From assembly GCA_026004615.1 (NCBI GenBank), contig BPJM01000001.1, positions 251,482 through 315,481 of the forward strand: DNA of 64,000 nucleotides, read 5' to 3'. The translations under genes and the position numbers were made by a program. Under the pieces are notes generated by a model. It did not search any database. It was not told the DNA's origin and worked only from the letters and a program-made list of their open reading frames with translations. Numbering within the stretch: the stretch's first letter is position 1; each line of letters opens with the position of its first letter. Source of the DNA: Planctomycetota bacterium. Its GTDB lineage: Bacteria; Planctomycetota; J058; J103. Shown here piece after piece: positions 10,939-52,601 of this stretch.

Positions 10939-11169
10939 CGCCTCGCACCCCCCGCGTCCCTCGCCCCCCAGCATAGCCGCGGCACCGGGCGGTGCCACGC
11001 CGGGGCGCGCCGCGCTAGCTCCGATCGCCGCCCGCCGCTGCGCCGGCAGGCGGGGCCCGGTCCACCCGCACCGGAACTGCGGTTTGACGCTCCGCCGGGG
11101 CAGGGCTAGCCTAGCATCTCCATCGCGCGGAAGGAACGGCGCGCGGACAGCAGCCGGGGCGCGCAGCGG

Positions 11170-11391
11170 ATGGGCGAGCAGTCGGACACGATCGCGCTGG
11201 TCGTCAACGGCGAGCCGTACCGGATTCCACGCGGCACCACGGCGGCCGAGCTGGTGGCGCGGCTGGCCCCGCGCACGCCGGCGTTCGCGCTCGAGCGCAA
11301 CGGCCGGCTGGTGCGGCGCCAGGATCTGGAGCAGACCGCGCTCGCCGACGGCGACCGGATCGAGATCGTCACCTTCGTCGGGGGCGGCTAG
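11170..11391 (+). CDS. thiS: sulfur-carrier protein ThiS
   Basis: 73 aa, beta-grasp-like sequence ending ..DRIEIVTFVGGG. It lies immediately upstream of thiG. Confidence 0.85.
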   Translation: MGEQSDTIALVVNGEPYRIPRGTTAAELVARLAPRTPAFALERNGRLVRRQDLEQTALADGDRIEIVTFVGGG

Positions 11392-11460
11392 CCCCGCGCG
11401 CGCAGAGCCAGGCGCGCGACCGCGCCCCCTGCTGGCAGGAACTGAGAGGGATCAGGGATC

Positions 11461-12254
<794 letters not shown>

Positions 12255-12255
<1 letters not shown>

Positions 12256-20434: not shown

Positions 20435-20651
20435 GGTCCTGCCCCTCCTCCTCCGGCGGGCCCGCCCCTGCCGGGCAGCCCGCACGCCCTTCAGGGTATC
20501 GGCCGCGCCGCCGGCCGGCTTTCGCCCCCGCCGGCTGGCCGGCCTGCCCGCCGGTGGGCTATGCTTGCGGGGAGCGGGCGGCAGCCGCCGGGGGGAGCGG
20601 CCGGGCGCCCGCTGTGATCCGGGGGGCGGTGGTCGGTGGAGTCTCCAGGCC

Positions 20652-23600
20652 ATGCGCGCACGCTTCTGTCGGCTCGCTCGGCGTCTGTTGCGTTCGGGTT
20701 GCCGCCCGCTCCCGGCCCGCTGCGCCGCCGGGGCGCTGCGGGCCGCGCTGGTGGCGGCGTTGCTGTTCTTCGGCATGGGGCCGCTGTGGGCCGAGGAGGT
20801 CCGCTGGAAGGAGCCCGTGAGCGGCTCCTGGTACGACGCCAGCCGCTGGCTGAGCGCGAGCGGCGCGGAGCGGGTGCCGGGCACGGGCGACGTGGCGGTG
20901 ATCGACGCCGTGGACCCTGTCCAGCCGGGGCGCACCTACACGATCAGGCTGGCCGCCGCCCAGGCCGCGGTGGGGGGCCTGCGCCTCGCCTCGGCGCAGG
21001 CGACGCTGCTGCTCGCGCGGGGTGATCTGACCGTCGGCGAAGCGGGAGCCTCCCTCGAGCGGGGTCGGGTCCAGTTCGTCTGGGACGGCTTTCCCTCCGC
21101 CTGGCGCGGTAGCGGCACGCTCGCGGTCGGCTCCGATGCGGTCTTCGAGGTCATCGGCCATGCCAACACAATCTACAGCCCCCTGGAGAACCGGGGCGAG
21201 GTGCGCATCGTCGCCCGCGGGACCTTCGAGAACGCCGCCGGCGGCACCACCACCGGCGCCTTCGCACAGCTGATCCTCGCCGGGAAAGCCACCAACGCGG
21301 GCACGATGCTGCTGACCTCGGCGCCCGTCTCCGAAGGGGTCTCCCCGCAGAGCGCCGAGCTGATCGTGGACCCGCAGGGCTCGTTCACGAACCAGGGACT
21401 GCTGCGCGCCGAGACGGGCGCGAGCGGCGGCGAGCGGGTGATCGCGGGGGTCTGGACCAACGGAAGCGCCGGCACGGTCCGGATCGCCGACCCGCGGGTG
21501 CGGCTGACCAACCCACCCACGGGTCCCATGCACGTGATCAACGAGGGCACGTTCTGGATCGAGGACAAGGCCGGGGCGATCGTGCTCAGCGGCGGCCGCC
21601 GCTTCAGCCAGCGGGGCGGGCTGCTGCGCGTGGGGGGCGGCTTCTGGATGAACAACGGCCGCTTCGACTACGAGGGCGGCACGATCGAGGGCGTGCCCGA
21701 GCTGGTGTCCGCGGGCGGCCGGCAGGAGCTCTCCTTCGGCACTGGGCCGCTCGAGCCGGCAACCCTGCTGGTGGCGGGCCGGGACGTGCGCGTGCTCGGC
21801 GCGATCGCGCACGGGGTAACCCTGTCGCTGCAGGGCGGGGGCACCTTCGGCCCTCTGGGCTGGCAGGCTGCGTGGCTGGAGCTCAAGCCGGAGAAGGACG
21901 GCGGCAGCTTCACCAACCACGGCAGGCTGGAGATCGGCACCGCGACGGGCACCCAGGCGCTGATCAACGTGGAGCCCGGCGGCCGGTTCACCAACGCCCC
22001 CGATGGCGAGGTCATCTGGAAGAAGGGAGCAGGCGGCGACCGCAACTTCGTCGGCAACGTGACCAACCAGGGGACCGTGCTCGTGAAGTCCGGTGTCACC
22101 CTCGGCCTGCTCGGAGGCGGAGCAGAGTTCGTGAACGAAGGGCAGGTGCAGGTGCAGTCCGGAGCGCGGCTGTTGCTCCACAGCCAGCGCCGCTTCGTGC
22201 AGCACGCCGGCACGCTCGAGCTCGACGACGGCGGCACGCCCGAGGACCGGGCCGACGACGGCAGCTTCTGGGTCCAGAACGCGCGCTTCAGCTACCTCGG
22301 CGGGCGGATCGCCGGCATCCCGGAGATGACCTCGGTCGGCGGCAGCCTGGAGCTCAGCTTCGGCACCGGCCCGCTCGCGCCCCTGGCGCTGCTGCTCGGC
22401 GGCAGGGCGATCCGGCTGCGCTCGGATGTGCCCGCAGGGGTGGAGCTGCTGCTTTCCAGCGGCACCGTCGCCGGCAAGTCCGACTTCACCGTGCTCTCGG
22501 GTTGGAACGGGAGCAGCGTCGCCAGCTTCGCCAACGCGGGGCGCATCGTGATGGGCGCGGCGGGGGCGAGCGAGATCCGGATCGACTGCGCCGGCGAGGG
22601 CGTCGTGTTCACCAATCTTCCTGCAGGCGAAATCGAGGTCCGCAAGGCGGCGGGCGGAACGCGCAAGTTCAACGGCAACGTGGTCAACGAAGGCACCGTG
22701 CGGGTGCTGGAGGGCACCACCCTCGTCCTCGGCGACGGCACCACCCACCTGACCAACCGCGGCGTCTTGGAGGTCGCCGCCGGCGGCCTGGTACGCGCCT
22801 TCAGCAGCGGCCGCGGCTTCAGCCAGGAAGCGGGGGAGCTGAAGCTCGACGGCGGGCTGTGGATCCACAATGGCCGGTTCGACTTCCTCGGAGGCAGGAT
22901 CACCGGCCCGGGCACGGTCCAGCTCGCCGCGGGCGGCACCGCCGCCTCCCGGCTCACCTTCGGGTCGGGGCCGCTGGGGGGACAGCTGCTCCTCGGCGGC
23001 AACGAGCACATCCTCGAGGGCGACGTGCCGGCGGGGGTGACGCTCGCGCTGCAGGGCGGGGGCACCGTCGCCGGCAGCAGCGTCGGGATCACCGTGCTGA
23101 GATCGCCGAGTGGCTTCACCAACCACGGCACCATCCGCATGCAGGGCGGCTCGGAGGTGAAGATCGCCGTCCCGAAGAGCTCTGCCTCCGGCCCCAGGTT
23201 CACCAACGGCCCAGATGGGCTGCTGGACGTCACCTTCGGCGGGGGCGGGGTCGTGCGGCGGCTCAACGCCGAGTTCGTGAACCTCGGGGAGGCGCGCTTC
23301 GAGGCCTCGACCACCACCATCGGCTTCGATGTCAGTGCGCCGCGCCACCTCAACGAGGGACTGTTCTCCGTGAGGCGCGCCGACGCCCGCGTGCAGCTGT
23401 TCGGCACGGCCGCGCTCAACCAGGGCTCGGGCCGACTGGAAGGAGTGGGCATCGTCCAGGTGCTCGAGGTGGACCAGGACCTGTTGCAGAGCGCGGCGGT
23501 GGTGGCGCCCGGGATCGACAGGCCCGGCGTGTTGACCATCGAGGGCAGGTACGCGCAGCGGCAGACCGAGACGGCAGCGGGCACGCTCGAGATCGAGCTC

Positions 23601-25271
23601 GCCGGCACCGCGCCCGGAAGTGGCTACGACCGGCTGCTGGTGACCTCGAGCGTGGCGGAGGCGAACCTGAATGCCGAGCTCCGGGTCGTGCTGCGCGATG
23701 GGTTCGTCCCGGCGCCCACCGATACCTTCACCATCCTGCAGACCTCGACCAGCTCGGGCCGCAAGGGCCACTTCGCCAACGCGCCGCCGGTCACCACCGC
23801 CCCGGACGGCGCCGAGGTCGGCTTTGCGGAGAGCGGCGGCTGGCAGTTCGCCGTGCTCTACTATCCCGACCGCGTCGTGCTGGGGCAGTTCAAGCTGCTG
23901 GCCGACGCGGGGCCGGACCAGACCGTGGACGAGGGCGCGCTGGTGCAGCTCGACGGCTGCTCCTCGGTGCCAGGGGCCAGCTACCAGTGGGAGCAGATCG
24001 CAGGCGAGCCCCAGGTCGTGCTCTCCGATCCCACCGACTGCCGGCCCACCTTCACCGCGCCCTTGATCAGCGGCGAGTCGGTCGTGCTGACCTTCCGGCT
24101 CACCGTCTCGCTCGGCGAGCAGAGCGCCACCGACACCGTCGACATCACGGTCCGCAACACCAACCAGCAGCCGGTCGCCGTGGCGGGACCGGACCAGCTC
24201 GTCAACGAGGGCAGCACGGTCACGCTCGACGGCTCGAAGAGCTATGATCCCGATGGCGACTCGCTCAGCTATTCGTGGGTGCAGATCCTCCGGAGCTCGG
24301 AGCCGGCGGTCGTGCTGTCCGGAGCCGACTCCCCCACCGCCACCTTCCTCGCCCCCGAGGTGCCGAACGGCCAGACGCTCGTGCTCGCGTTCGAGCTGAC
24401 GGTGAGCGACGGCGAGCTGAGCGCGACCGATCAGGTGGTGGTCACCGTCGAACCGGTCAACCACCCGCCCATCGCGGATGCCGGGCCCGATCAGACGGTG
24501 CCTGCGGGCGAACGGGTCTACCTGGACGCCACCCGGAGCTCCGACCCGGACGGCGACCAGCTGAGCTACCTGTGGGAGCAGCTCGCCACCGACGAGATCC
24601 AGGTGAAGCTCGAGGGCGCGAGGACGGCGAGCCCCTCGTTCGTCGCCCCGAGCGAGGGCACGCTGCTGCACTTCCAGCTCACGGTCGATGACGGCTTCGG
24701 GGGGCGCGCCGACGACGAGGTGCAGGTGCTCGTCATCGATCCGAACGATCCCCCGGTCTGCGACCACGCCCGCCCGAGCATCGCGGTGATCTGGCCGCCG
24801 AACCACCGGATGGTCGAGATCGGGATCGAGGGCGTGATCGACGCCGACGGCGAGCGGGCGCAGATCACGATCACCGGCGTGTACCAGGATGAACCGGTCG
24901 ACGGGCTCGGCGACGGCCGGCACGCCCCCGACGCGATCATCCTGGATGGCGGCCGGCGGGTGCTGGTGCGCGCCGAGCGGAGCGGGCTGGGCAACGGGCG
25001 CGTCTACCACATCCAGTTCACGGCCGAGGACGGCCGCGGGGGCAGCTGCAGCGGCACCGTCCAGGTCGGGGTGCCGCACGATCTGCGGCGGGGATTCGTG
25101 ATCGTCGACGACGGCCCGCTGTACGACTCGACCGCGGGGCCGCCCTCGCCGCCGCCAGCCAGGGCCCATCCCGAGGGCGGCGGCCGCGCGAGGCCGGCCG
25201 GCCCGCCGCCGGGCGCCGTTCCGCAGGGCGGCAGCGACAAGCCCCCCCGGCCCGCCCCCGGCCGCCGCTGA
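20652..25271 (+). CDS. giant secreted/surface repeat protein: beta-helix-like N-region with three ~200-aa modules, three PKD/cadherin-like repeats, C-terminal beta-sandwich domain
   Basis: ATG at 20652 gives a signal-like N-terminus (..ALVAALLFFGMGPLWAEE). Modules start near 21597, 22191 and 22812 (R/GF[SV]Q..G.L.L..G.W..N.RF.Y/F.GG.I.G....GG...L.FG.GPL). Repeats with [AV]AGPDQ[TL]V.EG lie between 23904 and about 24760. Intact 1539-aa frame. Confidence 0.85.
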   Translation: MRARFCRLARRLLRSGCRPLPARCAAGALRAALVAALLFFGMGPLWAEEVRWKEPVSGSWYDASRWLSASGAERVPGTGDVAVIDAVDPVQPGRTYTIRLAAAQAAVGGLRLASAQATLLLARGDLTVGEAGASLERGRVQFVWDGFPSAWRGSGTLAVGSDAVFEVIGHANTIYSPLENRGEVRIVARGTFENAAGGTTTGAFAQLILAGKATNAGTMLLTSAPVSEGVSPQSAELIVDPQGSFTNQGLLRAETGASGGERVIAGVWTNGSAGTVRIADPRVRLTNPPTGPMHVINEGTFWIEDKAGAIVLSGGRRFSQRGGLLRVGGGFWMNNGRFDYEGGTIEGVPELVSAGGRQELSFGTGPLEPATLLVAGRDVRVLGAIAHGVTLSLQGGGTFGPLGWQAAWLELKPEKDGGSFTNHGRLEIGTATGTQALINVEPGGRFTNAPDGEVIWKKGAGGDRNFVGNVTNQGTVLVKSGVTLGLLGGGAEFVNEGQVQVQSGARLLLHSQRRFVQHAGTLELDDGGTPEDRADDGSFWVQNARFSYLGGRIAGIPEMTSVGGSLELSFGTGPLAPLALLLGGRAIRLRSDVPAGVELLLSSGTVAGKSDFTVLSGWNGSSVASFANAGRIVMGAAGASEIRIDCAGEGVVFTNLPAGEIEVRKAAGGTRKFNGNVVNEGTVRVLEGTTLVLGDGTTHLTNRGVLEVAAGGLVRAFSSGRGFSQEAGELKLDGGLWIHNGRFDFLGGRITGPGTVQLAAGGTAASRLTFGSGPLGGQLLLGGNEHILEGDVPAGVTLALQGGGTVAGSSVGITVLRSPSGFTNHGTIRMQGGSEVKIAVPKSSASGPRFTNGPDGLLDVTFGGGGVVRRLNAEFVNLGEARFEASTTTIGFDVSAPRHLNEGLFSVRRADARVQLFGTAALNQGSGRLEGVGIVQVLEVDQDLLQSAAVVAPGIDRPGVLTIEGRYAQRQTETAAGTLEIELAGTAPGSGYDRLLVTSSVAEANLNAELRVVLRDGFVPAPTDTFTILQTSTSSGRKGHFANAPPVTTAPDGAEVGFAESGGWQFAVLYYPDRVVLGQFKLLADAGPDQTVDEGALVQLDGCSSVPGASYQWEQIAGEPQVVLSDPTDCRPTFTAPLISGESVVLTFRLTVSLGEQSATDTVDITVRNTNQQPVAVAGPDQLVNEGSTVTLDGSKSYDPDGDSLSYSWVQILRSSEPAVVLSGADSPTATFLAPEVPNGQTLVLAFELTVSDGELSATDQVVVTVEPVNHPPIADAGPDQTVPAGERVYLDATRSSDPDGDQLSYLWEQLATDEIQVKLEGARTASPSFVAPSEGTLLHFQLTVDDGFGGRADDEVQVLVIDPNDPPVCDHARPSIAVIWPPNHRMVEIGIEGVIDADGERAQITITGVYQDEPVDGLGDGRHAPDAIILDGGRRVLVRAERSGLGNGRVYHIQFTAEDGRGGSCSGTVQVGVPHDLRRGFVIVDDGPLYDSTAGPPSPPPARAHPEGGGRARPAGPPPGAVPQGGSDKPPRPAPGRR
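21597..23394 (+). repeat. three tandem in-frame coding modules (period about 198-207 codons) inside the surface-protein gene
   Basis: Recurring strings: FSQRGGLLRVGGGFWMNNGRFDYEGGTIEG / FVQHAGTLELDDGG..FWVQNARFSYLGGRIAG / FSQEAGELKLDGGLWIHNGRFDFLGGRITG. Each is followed by L[ST]FG[ST]GPL..LL.GG and FTN..G motifs. Confidence 0.8.
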
Positions 25272-30800: not shown

Positions 30801-30877
30801 TGGCACGCCCGGAGGGATTCGAACCCCCGACCCGCGGATTAGAAATCCGCCGCTCTATCCAGCTGAGCTACGGGCGC
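30801..30877 (-). tRNA. tRNA-Arg (anticodon UCU), CCA encoded
   Basis: The reverse complement GCGCCCGTAGCTCAGCTGGATAGAGCGGCGGATTTCTAATCCGCGGGTCGGGGGTTCGAATCCCTCCGGGCGTGCCA folds as a cloverleaf: D arm GCTC/GAGC, anticodon stem GCGGA/TCCGC with loop TTTCTAA, T arm GGGGG-TTCGAAT-CCCTC. Confidence 0.93.
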
Positions 30878-31650: not shown

Positions 31651-33117
31651 ATGGCCATCGTGAGGATTCCGACCCCGCTGCGCAGCCTGGTCGGCGGGGC
31701 CGACGAGGTCGAAGTGGCGGCGGCGAACGTGCGCGAGGCGCTGGAGGAGCTGTCCCGGCGGCACGAGGGCCTGCGGGAGCGGCTGCTCGGCCCGGACGGC
31801 GAGCTGCGCCACTTCGTGAACCTGTACGTGGGCGCCGACGATATCCGCGATCGCGACGGACTGGAGACACCGCTCGCGGAGCGCGACGTGGTCTCGATCG
31901 TGCCCGCGATCGCGGGCGGCCTGCCCGATGTGCGCGCGCTGATGGCGGAGCTGCGCCAGCGGGTGCGCGAGGTGAGCGCCGAGCAGGTGCACGAGCTGCT
32001 GCGCCGCCCGGGCCCCAGGCCCGTGCTCATCGACGTGCGGGAGCCGGACGAGGTCGAGCAGGGCATGATCCCCGGCGCGCTCGCCATCCCGCGCGGACTG
32101 CTCGAGTTCCGCATCGAGCAGGCGGTACCCGACCGCGCCACCCCTATCGTCGTGCACTGCGCGAGCGGCGGCCGCTCGCTGCTCGCGGCGGACAGCCTGC
32201 AGCGGCTCGGCTACCGGGACGTCGCCTCCATGGCGGGCGGCTACCGCGCCTGGGAGCAGGCGGGCTACGAGACGACCCGGCCGTTGCGGCTGAGCCCCGC
32301 GCAGCGCCGCCGCTACCTGCGGCATCTGGCGATCCCGGAGGTCGGCGAGCAGGGCCAGCTGCGGCTGCTCGGCGCCACGGTGCTGCTCGTGGGCGCAGGG
32401 GGCCTGGGCTGCCCGGCGGCCTATTTCCTGGCCGCCGCCGGAGTGGGCCGGCTCGTCATCGTCGATGACGACGTGGTGGACGAGACCAACCTGCAGCGGC
32501 AGATCCTGCACACCGTCGACCGCATCGGCCAGCCGAAGGTGGACTCCGCGCGCCGCCAGCTGCTCGCGCTCAACCCCGACATCGAGGTGGTCGGGGTGCA
32601 GCAGCGGCTGACCAGCGCCAACGTCTCGGAGCTGGTCGCCGCCGCCGATGTGGTGCTCGATGGCTCGGACAACTTCCCCACCCGGTACCTGCTCAACGAC
32701 GCGTGCGTGCTGCACCGCAAGCCCTGCGTGCACGGCAGCGTCTTCCGCTTCGAGGGCCAGGTGACGGTGTTCTGGCCCGGGCGCGGCCCCTGCTACCGGT
32801 GCCTGTATCCGGCGCCGCCGCCCCCGGAGCTGGCGCCCTCGTGTGCGGAAGCAGGGGTGCTCGGGGTGCTGCCCGGGGTGATCGGGCTGCTCGAGGCGGT
32901 GGAGGTGATCAAGATCATCCTCGGCCAGGGCGAACCGCTGGTCGGCCGCCTGCTCACCTACGATGCCCTGCGGGCGCGGTTCACCGAGCTGCGCACCCGG
33001 CGCGATCCGGACTGCGCCTACTGCGGCGAGGGCCGTCCCTTCCCGGGCTTCATCGACTACGAGCAGTTCTGCGCCAGCGCGGGTGCAGGCCAGCCGGCCG
33101 CGCCCGCAGCGCGCTGA
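31651..33117 (+). CDS. triple fusion: CysO/MoaD-like ubiquitin-fold sulfur carrier (aa 1-90, ending AIAGG) + rhodanese + MoeB/ThiF-type E1 adenylyltransferase (MoeZ-like)
   Basis: MAIVRIPTPLR..HFVNLYVGADDI..VSIVPAIAGG (beta-grasp ending in GG at 31915-31920) runs straight on, with no stop, into a rhodanese domain (VLIDVREPDE..IVVHCASGGRS active loop). Then an E1 domain: LLVGAGGLGCPAAYFLAAAGVGRLVIVDDDVVDETNLQRQ, CYRC and CAYC zinc pairs, PSCAEAGVLG. Confidence 0.85.
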   Translation: MAIVRIPTPLRSLVGGADEVEVAAANVREALEELSRRHEGLRERLLGPDGELRHFVNLYVGADDIRDRDGLETPLAERDVVSIVPAIAGGLPDVRALMAELRQRVREVSAEQVHELLRRPGPRPVLIDVREPDEVEQGMIPGALAIPRGLLEFRIEQAVPDRATPIVVHCASGGRSLLAADSLQRLGYRDVASMAGGYRAWEQAGYETTRPLRLSPAQRRRYLRHLAIPEVGEQGQLRLLGATVLLVGAGGLGCPAAYFLAAAGVGRLVIVDDDVVDETNLQRQILHTVDRIGQPKVDSARRQLLALNPDIEVVGVQQRLTSANVSELVAAADVVLDGSDNFPTRYLLNDACVLHRKPCVHGSVFRFEGQVTVFWPGRGPCYRCLYPAPPPPELAPSCAEAGVLGVLPGVIGLLEAVEVIKIILGQGEPLVGRLLTYDALRARFTELRTRRDPDCAYCGEGRPFPGFIDYEQFCASAGAGQPAAPAAR

Positions 33118-37731: not shown

Positions 37732-39543
<1,812 letters not shown>

Positions 39544-39559
39544 GCGCGCGCCATCCCTC

Positions 39560-40426
39560 TCACCGTTGCGCCTCGTCGATGCGGTCACACACCGCAAAGT
39601 GGTACACGAAGGCGAGCAGGGCTGCGAGCACCAGCAGTACCGCGCCGCCCCAGCCCGGCCGCAATCCCATGAGCACCAGCCCGCACAGCACGCTCGCGCC
39701 CACCAGCCCGGCAAGCAGCCAGGCATTCGCCCGATTGCTGCGCCGCCGGACCACGGCGACCACGACCGGATGGAGCGCAAACGGCAGGCCGCCGGTGAAC
39801 AACAACCAGACGAGCAACCGCACCAGGCCCGAGAACGACCGCATCGTCGCATCCAGCCAGTCCACGGACCACCGGCTGTCGATGCGCCTGGCGCTTCGCA
39901 CCAACCCGCCGGGGACCTCCGCCTCGTCGCGCAGCCGGATCAGCCGCGCGCGCAGCTCGACCTCGGCCCCGAGGCCCCGGCGCCCGTCGGTGAATGCTCC
40001 CAGCTCGGAGAACAGCACTCCTTCCACCAGCTCGTCGCCTGCGGCCAGCGCGCGGCCGAGCTCGATCGCCTGCTCGCGGTTTGCCGGCGCCGCGCCGCCG
40101 AACCGCTCGGCGACGACCTCGCGCACCCGCCCCAGCCCGACCAGAAAATAGAGTTCCCGGTCCTCGACCGCCTCGTAGAGCAGGTCCGTCACCCGCCCGT
40201 CGAGGTCGCGGTATACCGGCGCCACCACCAGCTTGCGGATCTCGTCGCGCCGCGGCAGCGCGGCCGCCACCTCGCGCACCACCCGCTCGGCCAGCACGCG
40301 CCGGTACGGATCCAGCTCGCGCCGGGGCTGCCCGCCGAACAGCTTGCCGGCCAAAAACCAGACCAGCACGCCGGTGGCGGCTGCCAGAAAGGCGATTTCG
40401 ACGATCCGCGCCGCCGTCCGAAACAT
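39560..40426 (-). CDS. polytopic membrane protein, unknown function (cluster member)
   Basis: N-terminal TM (IVEIAFLAAATGVLVWFLAG), a ~170-aa soluble region, then three C-terminal TM helices. There are 16 nt to the downstream kinase gene and 3 nt to the upstream gene. Confidence 0.7.
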   Translation of the reverse strand: MFRTAARIVEIAFLAAATGVLVWFLAGKLFGGQPRRELDPYRRVLAERVVREVAAALPRRDEIRKLVVAPVYRDLDGRVTDLLYEAVEDRELYFLVGLGRVREVVAERFGGAAPANREQAIELGRALAAGDELVEGVLFSELGAFTDGRRGLGAEVELRARLIRLRDEAEVPGGLVRSARRIDSRWSVDWLDATMRSFSGLVRLLVWLLFTGGLPFALHPVVVAVVRRRSNRANAWLLAGLVGASVLCGLVLMGLRPGWGGAVLLVLAALLAFVYHFAVCDRIDEAQR

Positions 40427-43691: not shown

Positions 43692-45233
43692 CTACCAGCA
43701 GGCGCGGCGTGTCCCTGCCGCACCCGAGCCCTCGCGCGGCGCCGGCAGGCGGTAGGTGGCGAGCGGCTCGCGTTCGCCCCGCCGGTAGACCCGCACCAGG
43801 CGTTCCCCGCTGACGGCATCCGTGGCGAGCACCATGCGAAAGCGGCCGCTGCGATACACTCCATCCGGGCGCCCGTCGTGCGCCAGCCAGCCCGCGGCCC
43901 CGGCGGCCCGCTCGAGCGGGGGCAGCTCCAGCCCGTCCCACCGAACGCCCAGCCCCTGGCGCGAGAGCACCAGCCACGCGGCCACCGCGAGCGGCGAGGC
44001 CACCGCCCCCAGCACGAGGGCAGCACCCAGTGCCCGCGAGGCGCGCCGGCTGGGCCGGCTGCCGGCGCTGCGCCCCGCGGCCGGCCCAGCCGGCTGCTGC
44101 GCCCGCCGCCCCGAGCGGAGCGCGCGCCAGCCCTCGCCGCCAGCACCGAACGGCGCGAGGTGGCCGGCCCCCGACGGCGCCAACGAGCCCGGTCCCTGCC
44201 CGCTCGCAACAAAGCCCGCCACCTGCCCGGCGCCAGCTGGCCCGGCGCAGAGAACCGGCCCCGCCGCCCGGCCTTCGCCACTCCCGCCCTGGCGCGCCTC
44301 CTCGCCGAACAAGGCGCCCAGAACCGCCGCCCAGCTCGCCGCCACAGGCGCCCCGGACGCAACGGCACGCACCGCCGCCGCCCCGGGTCGCTGGCTGGGC
44401 AGCTCACCCCAGCGCGGACCGCCGGCGATCGCCTCCAGGTCGCGGGCCAGCTCCGCCAGCGAACCGTAGCGCCGCTCGCGGCCCGTGTAGCAGCGGCTGT
44501 AGATGTGGTCCCACCACCACGAGATCGCCGGGTTCACGTCGCTCGGCAGGTCGCGCCCCTGCGGCAGGATCCCGGTCAACATCTCGAACAACAACACCCC
44601 GATCGCGTAGATATCGGCGCGGTGGTCGATCTGTTCGCCGGGCCGCTCCTGCTCCGGCGCCATGTAGTGCACGGTCCCGAGCGCGCCCCCGGTCACCAGG
44701 CTCGGGCGGAGCCCGTCCTGCCCCGGCGGAGCCTGCCCGGCGCTCGGGCCACCGCCGACCTGGAAGTCCGTGATGCGCACCCGCCAGGTCTCTGCCCGCC
44801 CGCCCGCCTCCGCCCCCTCGACGAGCACGTTTTCCGGCTTGAGGTCGCCGTGCACCACCCCGCGGGCGTGCGCGTAACCTACGGCCTCCACCACCTGGCG
44901 CAACACCGCGGCGGCGTCCGCCACCTCCAGCCGCCCCCGCTCGCGCAACAGCTGCCGCAGGCTGCGCCCCACCACCAGCTCCCGCACCAGGAACGCCGGG
45001 CGGTGGCTGAGGTTGACATCGTGCACGCGGACGATCCCGGGGTGCTCCAGGCCGAACTGCGCCCGCGCTTCCCGCAACAGCCCCGCGATCGCGCTGTCCG
45101 AGGTGGCGAGCTTGAGGGCGACCGTTCGCGACAGATAGACGTGCTCGGCCCGCCACACCTCGCCGTGCGCCCCGACGCCGAGGCGCTCGACCAGCCGCCA
45201 CTGCTGCACCCGCGTCCCCTCGCGCACGTCCAT
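43692..45233 (-). CDS. membrane-anchored Ser/Thr kinase-like protein with atypical catalytic motifs (HGD, DFQ)
   Basis: ATG at 45233. LGVGAHGEVW, VALKL, HGDLKPENVLV, ITDFQVGG, VHYMAPEQ. A long Gly/Ala/Pro linker, then a TM (ALGAALVLGAVASPLAVAAWLVL) and a ~100-aa extracytoplasmic tail. Confidence 0.82.
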   Translation of the reverse strand: MDVREGTRVQQWRLVERLGVGAHGEVWRAEHVYLSRTVALKLATSDSAIAGLLREARAQFGLEHPGIVRVHDVNLSHRPAFLVRELVVGRSLRQLLRERGRLEVADAAAVLRQVVEAVGYAHARGVVHGDLKPENVLVEGAEAGGRAETWRVRITDFQVGGGPSAGQAPPGQDGLRPSLVTGGALGTVHYMAPEQERPGEQIDHRADIYAIGVLLFEMLTGILPQGRDLPSDVNPAISWWWDHIYSRCYTGRERRYGSLAELARDLEAIAGGPRWGELPSQRPGAAAVRAVASGAPVAASWAAVLGALFGEEARQGGSGEGRAAGPVLCAGPAGAGQVAGFVASGQGPGSLAPSGAGHLAPFGAGGEGWRALRSGRRAQQPAGPAAGRSAGSRPSRRASRALGAALVLGAVASPLAVAAWLVLSRQGLGVRWDGLELPPLERAAGAAGWLAHDGRPDGVYRSGRFRMVLATDAVSGERLVRVYRRGEREPLATYRLPAPREGSGAAGTRRACW

Positions 45234-45393
45234 GGTCGCACCACTCCCTGGGCTGTGCTGTCGTTGCGGCGGCGGGTCCTTCCTCCCACGCCCGGCGCGC
45301 CCGCGGCCGGCCCCCGGTCCGTGCGCTTTCACGGTAGCACCCGCCACGCCCCGCGACAAGCCGATCCGGGGCGGAGCTGGGCGGGACCGGGAC

Positions 45394-45990
45394 TTACTCG
45401 CGCTCGCGCAGCTCGCGTTCGATCTCGCCGAGCCCCGACTCGATCTCGCGGTCCAGCGCCCGCTGTTCCTCGTGCGCCGCTTCCTCCTCGATGAGCCGGT
45501 CGATCTCGGCCTCGCTGACCTCCTCCTCGTCGAAGGCCTTCTCGGTGAACATCGTCTCCTGCGAGGCCTCGAGGAACAGCTCCGCCTGCTGCTCGAAGGT
45601 CTCGGCCTGCAGCATGGCCTTCTCGAAGTTGGCCTGGACCTCCGCCCAGTTGATGTCCCCGAAGACCTCGGCGATCGACTTCGAGATCATGGCCAGCGAG
45701 CGGGCGAACTGGCCCTGCATCTCCATCTGGTTCTTGCGCTGCGCGGCCGTCTCGATCGCCAGCAGCTGCCGTTCCAGTGCCCGCCGCTGCGCCGCCGTCT
45801 GGCGGATGGTGCGCTTGAGGAAGCGGACCTGGTCCTCCGCGCCGAGCTGGCGCGCTCGCCGCGCCTTCTTGATGTACTCCTGCTCGTGGCGCAACAGCTC
45901 CCGGATGCTCCGCTTGCAGGCGTTGATGCCCTTGCGGATCTCCATGTCTCGCTCCAGCTTGCGTTCCTGCTTGGACTTGAACAGCCCCAT
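45394..45990 (-). CDS. ESCRT-III superfamily protein, CHMP2/3 (Vps2/24)-like (198 aa)
   Basis: ATG at 45990. MGLFKSKQERKLERDMEIRKGINACKRSIRELLRHEQEYIKKARRARQLG..FLKRTIRQTAAQRRALERQLLAIETAAQR..QMEMQGQFARSLAMISKSIAEV.. has a basic helical-hairpin N-half and an acidic C-tail ..EEEVSEAEIDRLIEEE... Confidence 0.8.
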   Translation of the reverse strand: MGLFKSKQERKLERDMEIRKGINACKRSIRELLRHEQEYIKKARRARQLGAEDQVRFLKRTIRQTAAQRRALERQLLAIETAAQRKNQMEMQGQFARSLAMISKSIAEVFGDINWAEVQANFEKAMLQAETFEQQAELFLEASQETMFTEKAFDEEEVSEAEIDRLIEEEAAHEEQRALDREIESGLGEIERELRERE

Positions 45991-47413: not shown

Positions 47414-48052
47414 TCACAGCTCGCTCTCGGAAACGGGCTCCTCTTCGAGCCGCTTCGCCAGCTTCTCCTCCCGCTCCAGCGCCTCGTCGAGCTGCCCCGC
47501 CGCCTCGGCGGCATTGATGGCGTCGATCTCCTCGAGGAACCGCGCCTTGTCCGGATCCGCCTCCTCGGTCTCCCACGATTCGATCTCGATTCCGACCTCG
47601 TCGAGCGTCGCGTTCAGCTCGTCGATGTAGGCCGCCTCATCCACCTCTGCCCCCCGCAGCTTCTCGTCGAGTCCGGAGACGCGCACCCGCTCGATCAGCG
47701 AGCGGATACGGTTCTGGTCCCCGCTGCGCTCCAGCCGCTCCAGCCCGCGCAGATACCGCGTCAGGCCGACCATCTCCAGCGCCACCACCTTGCTCTCGCG
47801 CTTGAGATAGGCGGTATCGATCCGCACCTGGCGCAGCTCCTCCCACAGCACGTCCACCTCGACGCCGCTGCCCTCCCGCCGCGCCCGCTTGATGCGGTCC
47901 ACCAGCTCGGAGCGGCGGCTCTCCAGCTTGCGCATCTGCATGCGCTTCTTGCGCGCCTCACGCTTGAGCCCCAGCAGCGCCACCTTGAGGTCGCGGCTGG
48001 TGACCTCCTTTTTGCGGCCGAAGAGCTGCTCGAAGATCCCCTTGATCGGCAT
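47414..48052 (-). CDS. ESCRT-III/Snf7-like protein (212 aa) with MIM-like C-terminal motif
   Basis: ATG at 48052 after GGGAGA. MPIKGIFEQLFGRKKEVTSRDLKVALLGLKREARKKRMQMRKLESRRSELVDRIKRARREG.., a helical hairpin with a basic N-half. Acidic C-half ending ..LEREEKLAKRLEEEPVSESEL. Confidence 0.75.
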   Translation of the reverse strand: MPIKGIFEQLFGRKKEVTSRDLKVALLGLKREARKKRMQMRKLESRRSELVDRIKRARREGSGVEVDVLWEELRQVRIDTAYLKRESKVVALEMVGLTRYLRGLERLERSGDQNRIRSLIERVRVSGLDEKLRGAEVDEAAYIDELNATLDEVGIEIESWETEEADPDKARFLEEIDAINAAEAAGQLDEALEREEKLAKRLEEEPVSESEL

Positions 48053-48160: not shown

Positions 48161-48961
48161 CTACTCCAGCTCCAGGCGCCGTTCCCGCACCTCCTCGGTC
48201 GGCTCGCGCCGCGGCGGAGCGGGCGCCGGTTCCCCGCGCTCGATCTCCCTCTCGATCGCGTCTCCTTGCTGGGCGGCGCGCTCGGCCGGCGGGGCGGCTT
48301 CGCCCGCCGGCGGTGCGAGCTCGCGCACCGGGCGCGCGAGCTCGGCGGCCGGAGGTGCCAGCTCGGCCGCGGGCTCCCGCCCGCACTGCGCGGACTCGCC
48401 TTCCGCCGCCCCCGCCTCCCCGAGCAGCTCCGCCTCCAGCGCCTCCAGCTCCCGGTCCTCGCGCTCCGCACCCAGCTCCATGCTGGTGTCCAGGGTGGCG
48501 ACAGCGTGCATCGCCTCCTCGAACTTCTCGCGGCTCTCCTCGAAGCGCAGCGCGATCTCCTCGATCTGCTTGTCGTCCACGCCCCTGAGCTTCATCGCCT
48601 CCATCTCCTGGATCTTGCCGATGAGCTGCAGGTGCAGGTTGATGTTGTGCCGGTAGATGCGCTGCCGCTGCTCGTAGAGGTCCATCTGCCGGCGCAGGCG
48701 CTGGATCTGGAACAGCACGCTCTTCTTGCGGCGGCCATCGACGACGCCCGCGCGCACCTTCGCCGCCTCGCTGCGCTCCAACGCCTCCAGCTTGGCCAGC
48801 TCGCGGTCCAGCTCGTTCAGTTCCACCTCGTTGTGGGTCAGCAGCCGGTCCAGACCGTGCAGCAGCTCGCGCGTGCTGCGCGCGGTCTCGAACAGCCGCC
48901 GCGTCTCCTCCGGCAGATCCGGCCGCACGAACAGGCTCTTGATCCGATCCAGCAACGCCAC
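48161..48961 (-). CDS. ESCRT-III/Snf7-like protein (266 aa) with extended Pro/Ala/Glu-rich tail
   Basis: GTG at 48961 after GGGGAAGGA. ..ELNELDRELAKLEALERSEAAKVRAGVVDGRRKKSVLFQIQRLRRQMDLYEQRQRIYRHNINLHLQLIGKIQEMEAMK..DDKQIEEIALRFEESREKFEE.. parallels the Snf7/CHMP4 alpha1-alpha4 layout. The tail has the repeat AAELAPPAAELARPVRELAPPAGEAAPPAE. Confidence 0.72.
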   Translation of the reverse strand: MALLDRIKSLFVRPDLPEETRRLFETARSTRELLHGLDRLLTHNEVELNELDRELAKLEALERSEAAKVRAGVVDGRRKKSVLFQIQRLRRQMDLYEQRQRIYRHNINLHLQLIGKIQEMEAMKLRGVDDKQIEEIALRFEESREKFEEAMHAVATLDTSMELGAEREDRELEALEAELLGEAGAAEGESAQCGREPAAELAPPAAELARPVRELAPPAGEAAPPAERAAQQGDAIEREIERGEPAPAPPRREPTEEVRERRLELE

Positions 48962-49024: not shown

Positions 49025-50455
49025 TCACAGGCGCCGGCGCTTGAGGATCGCGCGCTCGCCGACCTCCAGGAGCGACAGCTCCGGATCGCGCGCGAGCAAC
49101 TCCCCCACCGCGCGCGCCAGCAGGCGCTCCTCCACCTCCATCTCCTCCTGGATCGCCCGCACCACCACGTGCCCGCCCCGCAGCGACAGCTCCGGATGCG
49201 ACTCCAGGTGCCGCCGCACCCGCTCCACCTTCTCGCGATCGCTCTCGGGATCGAACAGCCGCAGCACCCCGCCCCACCGCTCGTCCTCAGCATGCTGGAG
49301 CTGCCAGCGCGTGCCCCCCCGCCACTGGACCGCGCAGACCAGCCGATCGCGGCCCGCCAGGTGGTGCGCGACCTCGGGCTCCCAGCCGGTGGTCGACAGC
49401 ACCCCGACGTAGCAGAACGGCTCCTCCACCCCCCCTGCCCCCGCCAGCCCGATCAGCTCCAGCGCCCGTTCCAGCTCCGGCACCCCGGCGGGCCGACTCG
49501 CGCACCGGCGCACGAGCAGCTCCTGCAGCGGCGAGACGACACACGCTGCAAGCACCAGCCGCGTCTCGCGCCGCCCGAAGATCGAGCGCGTGAACACGCG
49601 GTAGACCGACGCCTCGTCGCGCGGCATCGCATCGAGCAGCGCCCGTTCGTAGATGCGGTGCCGCTTCATGAGGTCGACCACCTCGTCGGAGCGCGCGCGC
49701 CGCTGGTGCGTGCGGTCGCGTGGACCCGCGTTGAGCATGGTCCCGTCGAGCGGATGCGGCAGGCGGCGCACCTCCGCCATCTTCTCGTCGAAGCGCGCGA
49801 TGAACAGCTCCTCCAGCGCGCGTGCGCGCTCCAGCAGCACCGCCCCGTCGGGCAGCGCCTCGGGCAAGGGCAGCGCCGGCACCGGCGGCGGATCGCCCGC
49901 GCGGCCGCCTCCCACCACCTCGGCGACCAGGTCCAGCACCGAGACCTCGCTCGGCTGCAGCGCCCGCTTGCCGGTCAGCCGCGCGAAGAAGGCCTCCACC
50001 ACCTCGTGCGCCTGCTCGCTCGTCAGCGCCACCGGCACCAGACCCGGCGCCAGGCGCGCAGGCGGCTCGGGCGCCCCAGCCCCGGACAGCTCGCAACCGG
50101 CCGGCTGCAGGACATCCTCGTACAGCGCGCGCAGCTTCTCGGCCAGCAGCGCCGGCTCCTCGCGCAGGTTGCGCAGCACCTCGCGGATCTCCGCCAGCGA
50201 GCGGCCGAAGCGCGTCTTCATGGCGTGGATCGCCAGCAGCACCGGCAGGATCCAGTCCTCGCGGTACACCGGTGTCCGCCCGCCGCGACGCGCCTGCGGC
50301 GGCGGCAGCACGCCCTCGCTCACGTAGAAGCGCAGCGTGCGCTCCGAGGTCGGAAACCCCAGCGCCGTCGAGCGCTCCTCGATCTCGCGGTAATCGAGCA
50401 GGCGCTCCTCCTCGTCCTTCAGGCGGGCCCCCAGCTCCTGCAGTCGCTCGTTCAC
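49025..50455 (-). CDS. MerR-type HTH domain protein with large uncharacterised C-terminal region (cluster member)
   Basis: GTG at 50455. LLDYREIEERSTALGFPTSERTLRFYVSEGVLPPP is a MerR-like HTH/wing signature. The remaining ~380 aa have no domain I recognise. Confidence 0.7.
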   Translation of the reverse strand: MNERLQELGARLKDEEERLLDYREIEERSTALGFPTSERTLRFYVSEGVLPPPQARRGGRTPVYREDWILPVLLAIHAMKTRFGRSLAEIREVLRNLREEPALLAEKLRALYEDVLQPAGCELSGAGAPEPPARLAPGLVPVALTSEQAHEVVEAFFARLTGKRALQPSEVSVLDLVAEVVGGGRAGDPPPVPALPLPEALPDGAVLLERARALEELFIARFDEKMAEVRRLPHPLDGTMLNAGPRDRTHQRRARSDEVVDLMKRHRIYERALLDAMPRDEASVYRVFTRSIFGRRETRLVLAACVVSPLQELLVRRCASRPAGVPELERALELIGLAGAGGVEEPFCYVGVLSTTGWEPEVAHHLAGRDRLVCAVQWRGGTRWQLQHAEDERWGGVLRLFDPESDREKVERVRRHLESHPELSLRGGHVVVRAIQEEMEVEERLLARAVGELLARDPELSLLEVGERAILKRRRL

Positions 50456-50565: not shown

Positions 50566-50595
50566 ACTATAGCACCGCCACCGGCCATCGGGCAA
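50566..50595 (-). promoter_or_regulatory. sigma70-like promoter for the ESCRT-like operon (minus strand TTGCCC-N18-TATAGT)
   Basis: Minus-strand TTGCCC (50595-50590) and TATAGT (50571-50566). This is the only AT-rich hexamer in the 317-nt gap upstream of the HTH gene. Confidence 0.4.
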
Positions 50596-50772: not shown

Positions 50773-51784
50773 TCAGCGCGCCGCGGCACCCTGCCGCGCC
50801 AGCGACGCCAGGCGCGCCGCCGCGCCGCCGGCGACCGAGGCCACCGCCTGCAGCTGCGCCGGCTGCTCGAGCACGCCCTTGCGCAGCAGCTGCGTGGCCT
50901 CCTGCTGCAGCGCCTGCAGCGCCGCGGGCGACAGCGTCTGCAGCCCGCCGCTCGCGAGCAGCTGCTGCGCATCGCTCGCGATGCGAGTGCAGGTCTCGGC
51001 CGCACGCTGCCGCAGCCCCAGGGCGAGCGCGGTGGCGAGCTCACGAGGCGGCTCGCGCTCCAGCCATCCGCGCTCGATCAGCCCCGCGCTCCACCGGAAG
51101 TCCTCCTCGGTGAGCCGCCGGTCGATGCCGCCGAGCTCGCGCGCCACCTGGAACCTGGCCAGCAGCTGCTCGGCGCTCTGCTGCGCCTGGGCCAGCTGCT
51201 GGCGCTCGAGCGGCACGCCGGATTGGCGCGCGGCCACGTACGCGCTGTCCGCGACCGCCAGCGCAAGCGCGACCTGCTCCTGCGCCGGCAGGGCAGCGGT
51301 GCCGAGCAGCTCCAGGCCCGCCTGCACGAATGCCGCGCTGCGCGCGGAGGCCTGGCTGCCCAGCCGCTCGCGCTCGTACAGCTGCATGAGCTCGCCGTGG
51401 CGCTGCAGCGCCTGGGCGCGCGCCTCCGCATGCGCCGTCCGGCCCAGCGCGGCCACCAGCGCCTGCACGCGCTCGCCGTCCAGCCGGCCCCCCCGCGATG
51501 GGTTCCCGCGCCTGCTGGCCGACGGCGGTGCTGGAGGCCCCACCCGCCAGGGCCGCCATGATCTGATCGAAACTGCGAAGGGTCTCGGCATCCGGGGTGC
51601 TCTCCAGCGAGGCGTGCAGCATGGCCGCCCCGAGATCGGGCACCGGGCCGCCGGTGCGCGGGATGCGGATCGGCTCCCCGCCCTTGCCGGCCTCCGCCGG
51701 GGGTGCGGCCGCCTCGGGCTCCGCCGCCCCCGGCTGCCAGTCGATCCCCTGCCCCTCGATCCCGCCCGCCCCACGGACCCCCAT
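50773..51784 (-). CDS. all-helical hypothetical protein; apparent 1-nt frameshift at the homopolymer 51488-51494
   Basis: ATG at 51784 after AGAGAGGA: MGVRGAGGIEGQGIDWQ..TLRSFDQIMAALAGG..AVGQQAREPIAGG. It then continues in the 50773 frame (RLDGERVQALVAALGRTAHAEARAQALQRHGELMQLYERERL..). The junction falls on a G7 run (minus sense). Confidence 0.6.
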
Positions 51785-52175
51785 GGCCGTCCTCTCTTCG
51801 CCGCCACGTGTCGCGCCCGCAATGTATGCTCACCCGCGGCGCTGCGCAATGGGCGTCCCACCCCAACCGCCGTCCGTGCCTGCACCGCCGCGCGGCGCAG
51901 CCCTCTCGCCGCTGGCCGCGCGCGTCCGCCGGGAGCAAGCGCGGCGGCACTCGCCTCGGTGGGGGCTGCGCGCCGGCTCACGCGCTCGCCGCGCCTGCGG
52001 CCGGCGCGCGCCCGCTCGTGCGGCGCCGCGGTTACAATCGGCCTGGCGCGCACCGCTGGCGCCCGCGCTGGCGGACCGCGAGCGCCCGGCGGCGCGCGCG
52101 CCAGGCGGGCATGGTGCCCGCGGGGCCGCGTCCGTGCGGCGAGCGGGCCCCGGAGCGGACAAGGAGGCAACAGCG

Positions 52176-52601
52176 GTGACAGCGAGACTGCACCACGTGG
52201 GGATCGCGGTGCGCGACCTCGAGCAGGCACGCGCGCGCTGGGAACTGGCCCTCGGAGCGGCAGCGGGTCCGGTCGAACAGGTACCGGAGGAGGGGGTGCG
52301 GATCGCGTTCATCGAGGCGGGCCAGAGCCGCATCGAGCTGCTGGAGCCGCTGGACGAACACGGTCCGGTCGCCCGCTTCCTCGCGCGCCGCGGTGAAGGG
52401 GTGCACCACCTGGCGTTCGCGGTCGATGACCTCGCAGCGGCGCTGGAGCGCCTGAAGGCCGCCGGCGTGCAGGTGCTGGACGAGCAGCCGCGCGTGCGCG
52501 GCAACGGCGATCGCTCCATCGTGTTCATCCATCCGCGCGCCATGGGCGGGGTACTGACCGAGCTGGTGGAGTACCACCGGCAGGGCGCCCGGGAGGGATG
52601 A
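52176..52601 (+). CDS. mce: methylmalonyl-CoA epimerase (VOC/glyoxalase fold)
   Basis: GTG at 52176, 8 nt after AAGGAGG. LHHVGIAVRDLEQA..IAFIEAGQSRIELLEPL..GPVARFLARRGEGVHHLAFAVDDL..FIHPRAMGGVLTELVE. Confidence 0.88.
   Translation: MTARLHHVGIAVRDLEQARARWELALGAAAGPVEQVPEEGVRIAFIEAGQSRIELLEPLDEHGPVARFLARRGEGVHHLAFAVDDLAAALERLKAAGVQVLDEQPRVRGNGDRSIVFIHPRAMGGVLTELVEYHRQGAREG

Follow-up and report, generated by a model that had tools for sequence, protein, structure and literature searches.

A candidate Snf7/CHMP-type ESCRT-III protein encoded with Vps4-like MIT-AAA+ ATPases in a Planctomycetota genome

[quoted passage not shown] Published syntheses confine this pair to archaea and eukaryotes: Makarova et al. 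2024 (PMC10936438) report that archaea have ESCRT homologues and bacteria do not, and a Vps4-like ATPase 'appears absent in bacteria' (2025 review, PMC7619361), in which PspA and Vipp1 are held to be the sole representatives of the superfamily (PMC7619361, PMC8281802). The question is raised by a 64,000-nucleotide stretch of a Planctomycetota genome (assembly GCA_026004615.1, contig BPJM01000001.1, positions 251,482 to 315,481; hereafter the window), in which an earlier note, made from the letters alone, had likened the product of an open reading frame (ORF) at 45394-45990 to the CHMP2/CHMP3 class of ESCRT-III proteins. Here this 198-residue protein, named E3a, is identified from its sequence as truly related to the ESCRT-III proteins that cut membranes in eukaryotes and archaea. 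It is encoded in an operon of three ESCRT-III-like proteins and two MIT-AAA+ ATPases that is widespread in metagenome-assembled genomes (MAGs) of Planctomycetota and present in other bacteria, which contradicts the published view.

The protein reads exactly as the earlier note had quoted it, MGLFKSKQERKLERDMEIRK ... EEEVSEAEIDRLIEEE ... RELRERE, and is encoded on the minus strand, a point on which that note was silent. The plus-strand frame over the same interval is also open, which is typical of DNA with 74% guanine plus cytosine (GC) and carries no meaning. Read mechanically, the ORF (224 aa) extends as far as the GTG at 46068. We take the ATG at 45990 to be the true start, since MG[LI]FKS forms the N-terminus in 32/32 aligned homologues and, 9 nt upstream, there is a Shine-Dalgarno-like GAGGAG. 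From this start E3a is laid out as an MGLFKSK N-terminus, a basic hairpin, an acidic C-half with the alpha5-like motif D-x-E-I-D-R-L-I and a terminal MIM1-like (MIT-interacting motif 1) amphipathic helix. The polarity of basic core and acidic tail that had been remarked on is pronounced, with a net charge of +14 over residues 1-100 and -21 over residues 101-198, and it is a property of the family, whose 214 full-length members average +10.9 (residues 1-85) and -15.1 (the rest). Conservation extends to D-x-E-[IL]-D-x-[LM]-[LI] around residue 160 and to the terminal amphipathic segment D-x-x-I-x-x-G-L-x-x-I-x-x-E-L, while an N-terminus of M[GS][LI]F type, a putative membrane-insertion motif, is found in 162/214 members. 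A relaxed MIM1-like core, [DE]xx[LIVMF]xxx[LIVMF]xx[LIVMF], falls within the last 32 residues of 172/214 members, compared with 14 on average and never more than 27 when the tails are shuffled. Its hydrophobic spacing is that of MIM1.

Profile searches connect this family to Snf7. The Pfam Snf7 model matches E3a at E=1.7e-4, residues 16-174 aligning with positions 4-157 of the 171 in the model, and it recognizes 23/32 close family members (best E=6.5e-8); precomputed PF03357 annotations are found on about 40 among 120 homologues listed. At 90% clustering E3a has 191 relatives, nearly all of the named ones from Planctomycetota MAGs, and an exhaustive profile search of 1.84 billion representatives returned 544 clusters (50% identity) at E<=1e-3, with 323 at E<=1e-10. 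Two family alignments were used, a close one (A1) and a broad one reaching down to 22% identity (A2), and a further homologue search with A2 recovered essentially the same planctomycete set. Against all PDB sequences, the A1 profile matched CHMP3 (8e-4) and Snf7 (5e-3), and the A2 profile matched CHMP2A (2.5e-5), CHMP3 (8.4e-5), CHMP1B (3e-3), CdvB2 (0.018) and CdvB (0.63). In these alignments the MGLF of the family is paired with the MGLFGK of CHMP3 (3frv), and its 'aeiDRll' with EIDRIL (3frt, 2gd5). The formal top match of A2 in PDB, a designed eight-repeat protein, was rejected as an artefact of summed non-significant repeats. Identity of E3a to eukaryotic A-type ESCRT-III proteins is about 16-25%; E3a alone, searched with phmmer against PDB, found CHMP1B at E=0.27 only, and no NCBIfam model matched it in a scan of that collection. 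PspA_IM30 gave no Pfam match for E3a at E<=1 and none among 32 family members at 0.01, and PspA and Vipp1 gave no match in the PDB profile searches at E<=10, their structures being present in that library.

The predicted fold is concordant with this picture. An AlphaFold2 model of E3a built from A1 is of moderate confidence (predicted local distance difference test, pLDDT, 68 overall) and contains helices at residues 7-49, 52-109, 115-127, 132-147 and 160-197. The first two form a long alpha1-alpha2/3 hairpin at pLDDT 78-89, which is followed by shorter helices in a C-half at 43-75. In a Foldseek search of PDB the polymer structures of CHMP2A, CHMP1B and CHMP3 came top (prob 0.99-1.0), with Loki CHMP4-7, Vipp1, Snf7 and PspA lower in the list and Vipp1/PspA at ranks 10-25. 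The ESCRT-III affinity that the earlier note had proposed, the likeness of the termini to CHMP3 and the separation of the protein from PspA/Vipp1 are thereby borne out in Snf7-family profiles and in a hairpin whose closest structures are CHMP proteins. The likeness is greater than chance would give, and no outcome that the earlier note had named as refuting it was seen.

E3a shares its operon with two ATPases, AAA1 and AAA2, whose starts were set from orthologue lengths (about 405 and 372 aa). In each, a helical N-domain of some 75 residues is conserved, and a variable linker separates it from a single AAA+ cassette of classical type. Walker motifs are intact in both: AAA1 carries Walker A GPPGTGKT, pore loop KYFGES and Walker B VVFLDEF, and AAA2 carries pore loop KWVGESEK, Walker B VIFIDEI and RPGRFD. 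Against PDB, the N-domain profile of AAA1 matched the MIT domain of VPS4B (4.1e-5), as well as VPS4A MIT, MITD1 and yeast Vps4; against full-length VPS4B (1.8e-4) the alignment runs on to the start of the AAA domain. The best PDB match of the AAA2 N-domain was weak (0.016), to a 74-residue chitin synthase domain (2mpk) that we take to be an MIT domain. Homology of this N-domain to the MIT domain of AAA1 is given by hhalign (95%, E=3.4e-8), with a score of 48.6 vs <=21 in column-shuffled or reversed controls. A match of AAA1 to Vps4_C is weak (E=0.025), and the same domain is faint in L067, one of the distant loci described below. The two-domain p97 dominates the PDB rankings, which are uninformative on ATPase subfamily. 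In a neighbour-joining tree, which is unbootstrapped and includes one archaeal sequence and no reference Vps4 sequences, AAA1 and AAA2 fall into two distinct clades, with the ATPase from the archaeon (Thermococcus) as sister to all bacterial AAA1. By architecture, AAA1 and AAA2 are best described as MIT-AAA+ ATPases of a Vps4-like kind and as no more than candidate orthologues of Vps4.

Two further helical proteins, E3b and E3c, are encoded upstream. BLASTP of E3a against either is not significant, and profiles are required to see the relationships. E3b has a basic N-half and an acidic tail and aligns with the E3a family by hhalign over 148 collinear columns (prob 92.5%, E=5e-7), at a score of 49.9 vs <=15 in shuffle or reversal controls; its profile alone matched no ESCRT-III structure in PDB. 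E3c is linked to E3b (hhalign score 36.3, controls <=19), and its comparison with the E3a family by hhalign was not significant. Its AlphaFold2 model exceeds pLDDT 90 over residues 1-150. In it a short N-helix is followed by a hairpin, a further pair of helices and a disordered tail that is acidic and proline-rich. Both proteins are acidic-tailed and have ESCRT-III-like N-termini (MGIxxxLFG and MLLDKIKxLFG). E3c appears ESCRT-III-like in the topology of its model, its homology is only transitive, and its membership is not claimed as proven. Its tail (window positions 48161-48400) is rich in proline, alanine and glutamate and poorly conserved across orthologues, many of which end in a short hydrophobic-acidic motif (LELE, MFEE, LYEE, ELE). 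This ending may represent another type of motif for binding an ATPase or a partner.

The genes of the cluster (Table 1) all lie on the minus strand with short gaps between them, in the order MerR-like, E3c, E3b, AAA1, E3a, Ser/Thr kinase, AAA2, 664-aa protein, 288-aa protein, FHA kinase. This arrangement recurs. A scan of 185,579 species-representative genomes with two peptide patterns yielded 63 loci, all in MAGs and almost all labelled Planctomycetota, with a few from Sumerlaeota, Hydrogenedentes or simply 'bacterium'. The recurrent order is MerR-E3c-E3b(x1-2)-AAA1-E3a-AAA2-(664-aa)-(transmembrane protein)-Ser/Thr kinase. Over 64 loci, the window included, the components number at least 63 for E3a, 53 for E3b, 46 for E3c, 43 each for the MerR-like protein and AAA2, 40 for AAA1, 33 for the 664-aa protein and 21 for the kinase, these being lower bounds because many contigs end within the cluster. 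Where a locus extends far enough to tell, E3a is almost always flanked by AAA1 and/or AAA2. GC content of the cluster equals that of its flanks, and ordinary chromosomal genes surround it in the window. Recent foreign acquisition in this genome was considered and rejected, the native GC and the synteny across many genomes speaking against it. Among the loci, L033 is labelled Ca. Brocadiia. Another, L052, comes from a record titled Candidatus Kuenenia stuttgartiensis isolate FI88_62_9, and its cluster locus has 63% GC; Kuenenia has about 41% GC. The label is probably wrong, so that presence of the cluster in anammox bacteria cannot be inferred from this record.

Table 1. Genes and promoter-like site of the E3a cluster (window coordinates).
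Feature	Position	Strand	Evidence
Promoter-like site, sigma-70-like, TTGCCC-18-TATAGT with TG, upstream of MerR-like gene	50566..50595	minus	consensus match only
MerR-type HTH (helix-turn-helix) protein, 476 aa, first cluster gene	49025..50455	minus	MerR_1 E=1.7e-7
E3c, helical-hairpin protein, 266 aa, N-terminus MALLDRIKSLF	48161..48961	minus	hhalign to E3b
E3b, distant E3a paralogue, 212 aa, N-terminus MPIKGIFEQLFGRKK	47414..48052	minus	hhalign vs E3a family
AAA1, MIT-linker-AAA+ ATPase (Vps4-like), 428 aa	46099..47385	minus	AAA domain E=2.4e-34
E3a, candidate Snf7/CHMP-type ESCRT-III, 198 aa	45394..45990	minus	ORF, profiles, predicted fold, motifs
Ser/Thr protein kinase, ORF of 555 aa, start uncertain, possibly the ATG near 45233	43692..45359	minus	Pkinase E=1.9e-33
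AAA2, second MIT-like-AAA+ ATPase, 383 aa	42484..43635	minus	AAA E=1.8e-40
SPFH/Band_7-like N-domain and coiled coil, 664 aa	40430..42424	minus	Band_7 matches in orthologues
Putative membrane protein, 288 aa	39560..40426	minus	hydrophobic segments on reading; no Pfam match
Ser/Thr kinase, the second of the cluster, FHA and RDD (membrane) domains	37732..39852	minus	Pkinase 4.6e-36, FHA 1.2e-7, RDD 4.9e-19

The remaining cluster genes suggest regulation and attachment to membranes. In 43/64 loci the MerR-like gene is present, always upstream of E3c; its product has a conserved C-terminal domain without an assigned function and is presumed to be a regulator or adaptor. One sigma-70-like site was found upstream of this gene, where 0.2 would be expected by chance. 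A long minus-strand ORF (50773-52230), a possible gene that the gene call based on GC at third codon positions did not include, lies directly upstream of the promoter-like site. The 664-aa protein, conserved in 32-33 loci, had no Pfam match at full length. Band_7 matches 10/17 of its orthologues (best 1.9e-5), the window copy lying below the cut-off at 0.0063, and hhalign of its N-domain against Band_7_1 proteins of distant loci was not significant; its assignment to SPFH is only partial, since the Pfam Band_7 matches are the sole support. Its C-terminal region looks like a beta-propeller on reading of the sequence. The 288-aa gene follows the 664-aa gene in several loci, and the FHA kinase, which fits the '...Big-TM-STK' ending of other loci, probably starts downstream of 39560, because its mechanical ORF overlaps the previous gene. 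PADLOC-DB 2.0 gave no match for E3a, E3b, E3c or the MerR-like, 664-aa and 288-aa proteins; its matches in the cluster were limited to generic AAA (IetA, TRIP13) and kinase (PD-T4-6, mad6) domains. PspF, PspB, PspC and LiaI/Toastrack were absent from the cluster genes scanned with Pfam, NCBIfam and PADLOC.

Elsewhere in the window, the plus strand encodes a DEAD-box helicase that is MrfA-like, carries an MZB zinc-binding domain and precedes an RNase_H_2-superfamily/TPR protein (2864-6729), a typical MrfAB-like pair; a probable large surface protein of 1635 aa in which PKD, REJ, Big_9 and cadherin-like repeats occur (20364-25271); and a 488-aa protein with ThiS, rhodanese and ThiF domains, a fusion of sulfur carrier and activating enzyme (31651-33117). 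A tRNA gene on the minus strand (30804-30877) is the sole Rfam match in the window at gathering threshold.

Relatives of the module are also found far from the planctomycete set. In distant loci of 25-56% GC a common core is seen again: E3a-type proteins, in many cases two or three of them, ATPases that carry the same N-domain, a Band_7_1 SPFH protein (in one case joined by a zinc ribbon) and additional 'MGLF...' proteins. The MIT2 profile matches the ATPases of these loci at 4e-18 to 6e-18 (L065, L064), 5e-13 (L067) and 2e-5 (L069). In some members the E3a-type domain is joined to a DNA motor. For instance, it stands N-terminal to FtsK alpha and the FtsK/SpoIIIE motor at L064:10001-11863 and also in P0206, P0251, P0254 and P0258; such fusions occur in four cluster representatives, with no transmembrane region annotated, and the fusion point is where the membrane- or septum-targeting domain of FtsK normally lies. 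Besides the fusion, the L064 locus encodes another two E3a paralogues together with a Band_7_1 protein and a MIT-AAA+ ATPase of AAA2 type. Another example is a fusion to a RuvB-like AAA+ protein with a winged-helix domain (L067:8001-9812), and in L069 an E3a-type gene (8001-8582) lies directly upstream of a RuvB-like gene (8612-10786). This fusion and adjacency are a second, independent tie of the E3a family to a motor of DNA-translocase type. Genes for TIR, TerD and trypsin-Sel1 proteins occur near the RuvB-linked loci.

A tblastn search of annotated plasmids gave two matches. The 49-kb plasmid of Thermococcus peptonophilus OG-1 (NZ_CP014751, locus 4017-9558) carries, in order, E3b, E3b, a Ser/Thr kinase, an AAA1-type MIT-AAA+ ATPase, a PP2C phosphatase and E3a, with E-values of 1e-10 and 1e-16 for the E3b proteins and 9e-35 for E3a. 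Its ATPase matches AAA1 by phmmer at 9e-74 and the MIT1 profile at 2e-16, and ends in RYEKWAEEFGG, which we take to be typical of Vps4 and the meiotic clade. It could be that this archaeal module serves plasmid spread; Thermococcus is known for DNA-carrying vesicles (references within PMC10936438). The second match is a 375-kb replicon of the Chloroflexota phototroph Ca. Chlorohelix allophototropha (NZ_CP128401, locus 2583-12302), with the order HTH, 471-aa hypothetical, SMP-30/propeller, 6-bladed propeller, E3a-like and two FHA proteins. There is no AAA+ ATPase within 9 kb of this E3a-like gene, and IS66 and IS3 transposases adjoin the locus. A search for the system in phages gave no matches.

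Taken together, these observations make it probable that E3a is a bacterial Snf7/CHMP-type ESCRT-III subunit of a copolymer that is remodelled by Vps4-like ATPases, with recruitment through MIM-MIT contacts and control by phosphorylation. In the proposed mechanism, the basic hairpin and the N-terminal MGLF motif would bind the cytoplasmic face of the inner membrane, where E3a would co-polymerise with E3b and E3c. The acidic C-half (alpha5 'DxEIDRLI') may fold back in autoinhibition or bridge neighbouring subunits, and the terminal MIM1-like helix would recruit the MIT domains of AAA1 and AAA2. The ATPases would then extract subunits, leading to stepwise remodelling or disassembly of the polymer. 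It is probably the SPFH-like/propeller protein and the membrane protein that mark the site on the membrane or act as its scaffold, and the two Ser/Thr kinases, one with FHA, and the MerR-like protein probably control the time of firing. The most likely output is regulated accessory membrane remodelling, either repair and maintenance or vesicle budding and scission, as opposed to universal core cytokinesis. Such an accessory role is favoured because of the patchy distribution, the plasmid and megaplasmid sites and the stress or defence neighbours in distant loci.

Several points weigh against this interpretation. The Snf7 score of E3a itself, 21.7 bits, is below the Pfam gathering cut-off of 27.3 bits. 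The Foldseek E-values of its model are about 1e-2, which helical hairpins are expected to give, and the C-half of the model is of low confidence. The MIM-like helix is without the conserved Arg/Lys positions of the canonical MIM1 consensus. For E3c, Foldseek was non-specific, returning YscO, Smac and UvsY alongside PspA, Vipp1 and CdvB2. Pfam MIT matches the N-domains of 3/28 AAA1 orthologues, and Pfam run on the N-termini of the window AAA1 and AAA2 alone gave no match, MIT included. The NCBIfam CdvC model, whose cut-off is 650 bits, gives the two ATPases 161.7 and 191.4 bits, and the PAN and CDC48 models score them as high or higher. Lastly, polymerisation and membrane binding are properties that we infer for E3a.

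If the machine is accepted, its role may still be read differently. One reading makes it part of a conflict, defence or stress island that seals or remodels membranes when phages or toxins strike, or a means of vesicle-mediated DNA export by mobile elements. The Thermococcus plasmid and the Chlorohelix replicon, as sites within a patchy distribution, are in line with it, as are the TIR, TerD and trypsin-Sel1 genes and insertion sequence (IS) elements beside distant loci, the joining of family members to FtsK and RuvB motors and the presence of kinase, FHA and PP2C signalling components. However, the window cluster is native in GC and lies among ordinary chromosomal genes, its order is strongly conserved across many planctomycete genomes, no phage matches were found, and none of the helical, SPFH-like or MerR-like proteins has a model in PADLOC, which finds only generic AAA and kinase domains. 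We regard this role as unlikely.

Another reading is a division role. The E3a machine would then carry out cytokinesis or bud scission in the FtsZ-less Planctomycetota, in a Cdv-like manner, timed by Ser/Thr phosphorylation and, in some bacteria, coupled physically to chromosome translocases by the ESCRT-III::FtsK fusions. If true, no ESCRT-based cytokinesis would have been seen in Bacteria before, and the way in which these bacteria divide would be explained. The hosts are for the most part labelled Planctomycetota, a phylum reported to be without FtsZ and whose division mechanism is unknown (PMC5147048); FtsK, the motor to which family members are fused in four cluster representatives, nucleates the divisome in FtsZ-less Chlamydia (PMC11975371); and crenarchaeal ESCRT-III/Vps4 divides cells (PMC10936438). 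Against this role, the two-pattern scan found the system in 63/185,579 species genomes, all of them MAGs and none a named cultured planctomycete. The module is also found in low-GC bacteria, in Chloroflexota and on plasmids or megaplasmids, suggesting an accessory function, and the genomes that carry the FtsK fusions (55% GC) are not planctomycete-like. This role appears distinctly improbable.

The nature of E3a itself can be challenged in two ways. It might be a PspA/Vipp1-type stress protein whose CHMP-like termini are convergent, since PspA/Vipp1 usually represent the ESCRT-III superfamily in bacteria (PMC8281802), are present in the Foldseek list and, in the case of PspA, have an SPFH partner; yet five ESCRT-III proteins were matched where neither PspA_IM30 nor any PDB PspA/Vipp1 entry was, and the partner ATPases are MIT-AAA+ and not PspF, with no PspB or PspC in the cluster, so that we give this idea very little credence. 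Nor do we think it at all probable that E3a is a generic charged coiled coil with a compositional likeness to ESCRT-III: the sequences are helical, charge-rich and of low complexity, a designed repeat protein topped one profile search and Foldseek discriminates weakly on hairpins, but the Snf7 and CHMP3 alignments are collinear and near full length, all non-designed top matches are ESCRT-III, column-shuffled or reversed profiles abolish the profile-profile scores, and the terminal motifs and the MIT-AAA+ partnership are kept across genomes of 25-74% GC and an archaeon.

A Vps4-remodelled ESCRT-III copolymer in bacteria, as favoured here, would matter in several respects. It offers new material for dating the ESCRT-III/Vps4 partnership, which is either ancient or exchanged between domains; the deeper origin of the cluster may be transfer or ancient ancestry. 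In a phylum known for unusual membranes it is a candidate for what invaginates membranes, forms vesicles or divides cells without FtsZ. The fusions with FtsK and RuvB hint at a so far unexplored link of ESCRT-type scission to DNA translocation, and the operon is a possible compact bacterial model for ESCRT-III/Vps4 mechanics.

Among known systems, the best profile and fold matches of E3a are the eukaryotic CHMP3/Vps24, CHMP2A/Vps2 and CHMP1B, proteins of similar length (about 200 aa). Eukaryotic A-type ESCRT-III and E3a have in common an MGLF N-terminus, a basic alpha1-alpha2 hairpin and an acidic C-half with EIDR[IL]L. E3a also resembles eukaryotic ESCRT-III in its C-terminal amphipathic helix in the MIM position and in its MIT-AAA+ ATPase partner. 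Unlike eukaryotic ESCRT, the system has a bacterial host and two distinct ATPase paralogues, no ESCRT-0/I/II or ubiquitin components were seen, and the accessory genes are of bacterial type (MerR-like, SPFH/propeller, Hanks kinases). PspA/Vipp1 (IM30) belong to the same superfamily, share the hairpin fold and form cytoplasmic membrane-remodelling polymers. The SPFH partner of B. subtilis PspA, YdjI (cited in PMC10936438), is a further likeness to the window cluster. PspA is partnered by PspF/B/C, whereas E3a is partnered by MIT-AAA+ ATPases, and no profile similarity between the two is detectable.

The crenarchaeal CdvABC system likewise encodes ESCRT-III paralogues with an MIT-AAA+ ATPase, and its CdvB2 and CdvB are among the weak profile matches of E3a given above. 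In contrast to CdvABC, no homologue of CdvA (PRC-barrel) was seen, the ESCRT-III proteins of the cluster are without a C-terminal winged helix, and the NCBIfam CdvB and CdvC equivalog scores stay below their cut-offs. The closest prior recognition of such genes in bacteria is a study that reported VPS4-like ATPases transferred to bacteria including Planctomycetes, with snf7 displaced by a TPR-6TM protein, and also a divergent Snf7 that is anchored in the membrane and goes with a double-AAA+ ATPase (Ravi et al. 2024, PMC11237479). Those systems are likewise bacterial VPS4-like ATPases with occasional Snf7-like proteins; unlike their operons, the present one combines soluble Snf7-type proteins of three families with single-cassette MIT-AAA+ ATPases. 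A text search of the literature, in which journal coverage is incomplete, gave no prior account of a planctomycete ESCRT/Snf7/Vps4 system.

In gene content, the nearest counterparts are euryarchaeal. The 'Main', Halo_FHA and Meth_adaptin systems combine Vps4 and ESCRT-III with Ser/Thr kinase, phosphatase and FHA proteins (Makarova et al. 2024, PMC10936438), and also with winged-helix and SPFH-plus-zinc-ribbon partners (PMC10936438). Those of the 'Main' clade contain arCOG09748 (winged-helix) and arCOG08177 proteins and often a Ser/Thr kinase together with a Ser/Thr phosphatase (PMC10936438). The window cluster differs from the 'Main' systems in its AAA2 clade, its MerR-like first gene and its fusion of SPFH to a propeller (the propeller by reading), and it has no phosphatase, which is present in the Thermococcus plasmid locus only; the likeness to 'Main' systems is one of the described partner classes. 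The gene order on that plasmid agrees with the 'Main' systems that have a Ser/Thr kinase and phosphatase. Taken as a group, these euryarchaeal systems and the bacterial cluster show a similar kind of association, a Vps4-type ATPase with several ESCRT-III proteins and Ser/Thr kinase, FHA and SPFH partners. The plasmid module of Thermococcus peptonophilus is a direct homologue of the window cluster within the euryarchaea, and by analogy of its components the bacterial cluster resembles, and may be said to mirror, the euryarchaeal ESCRT systems.

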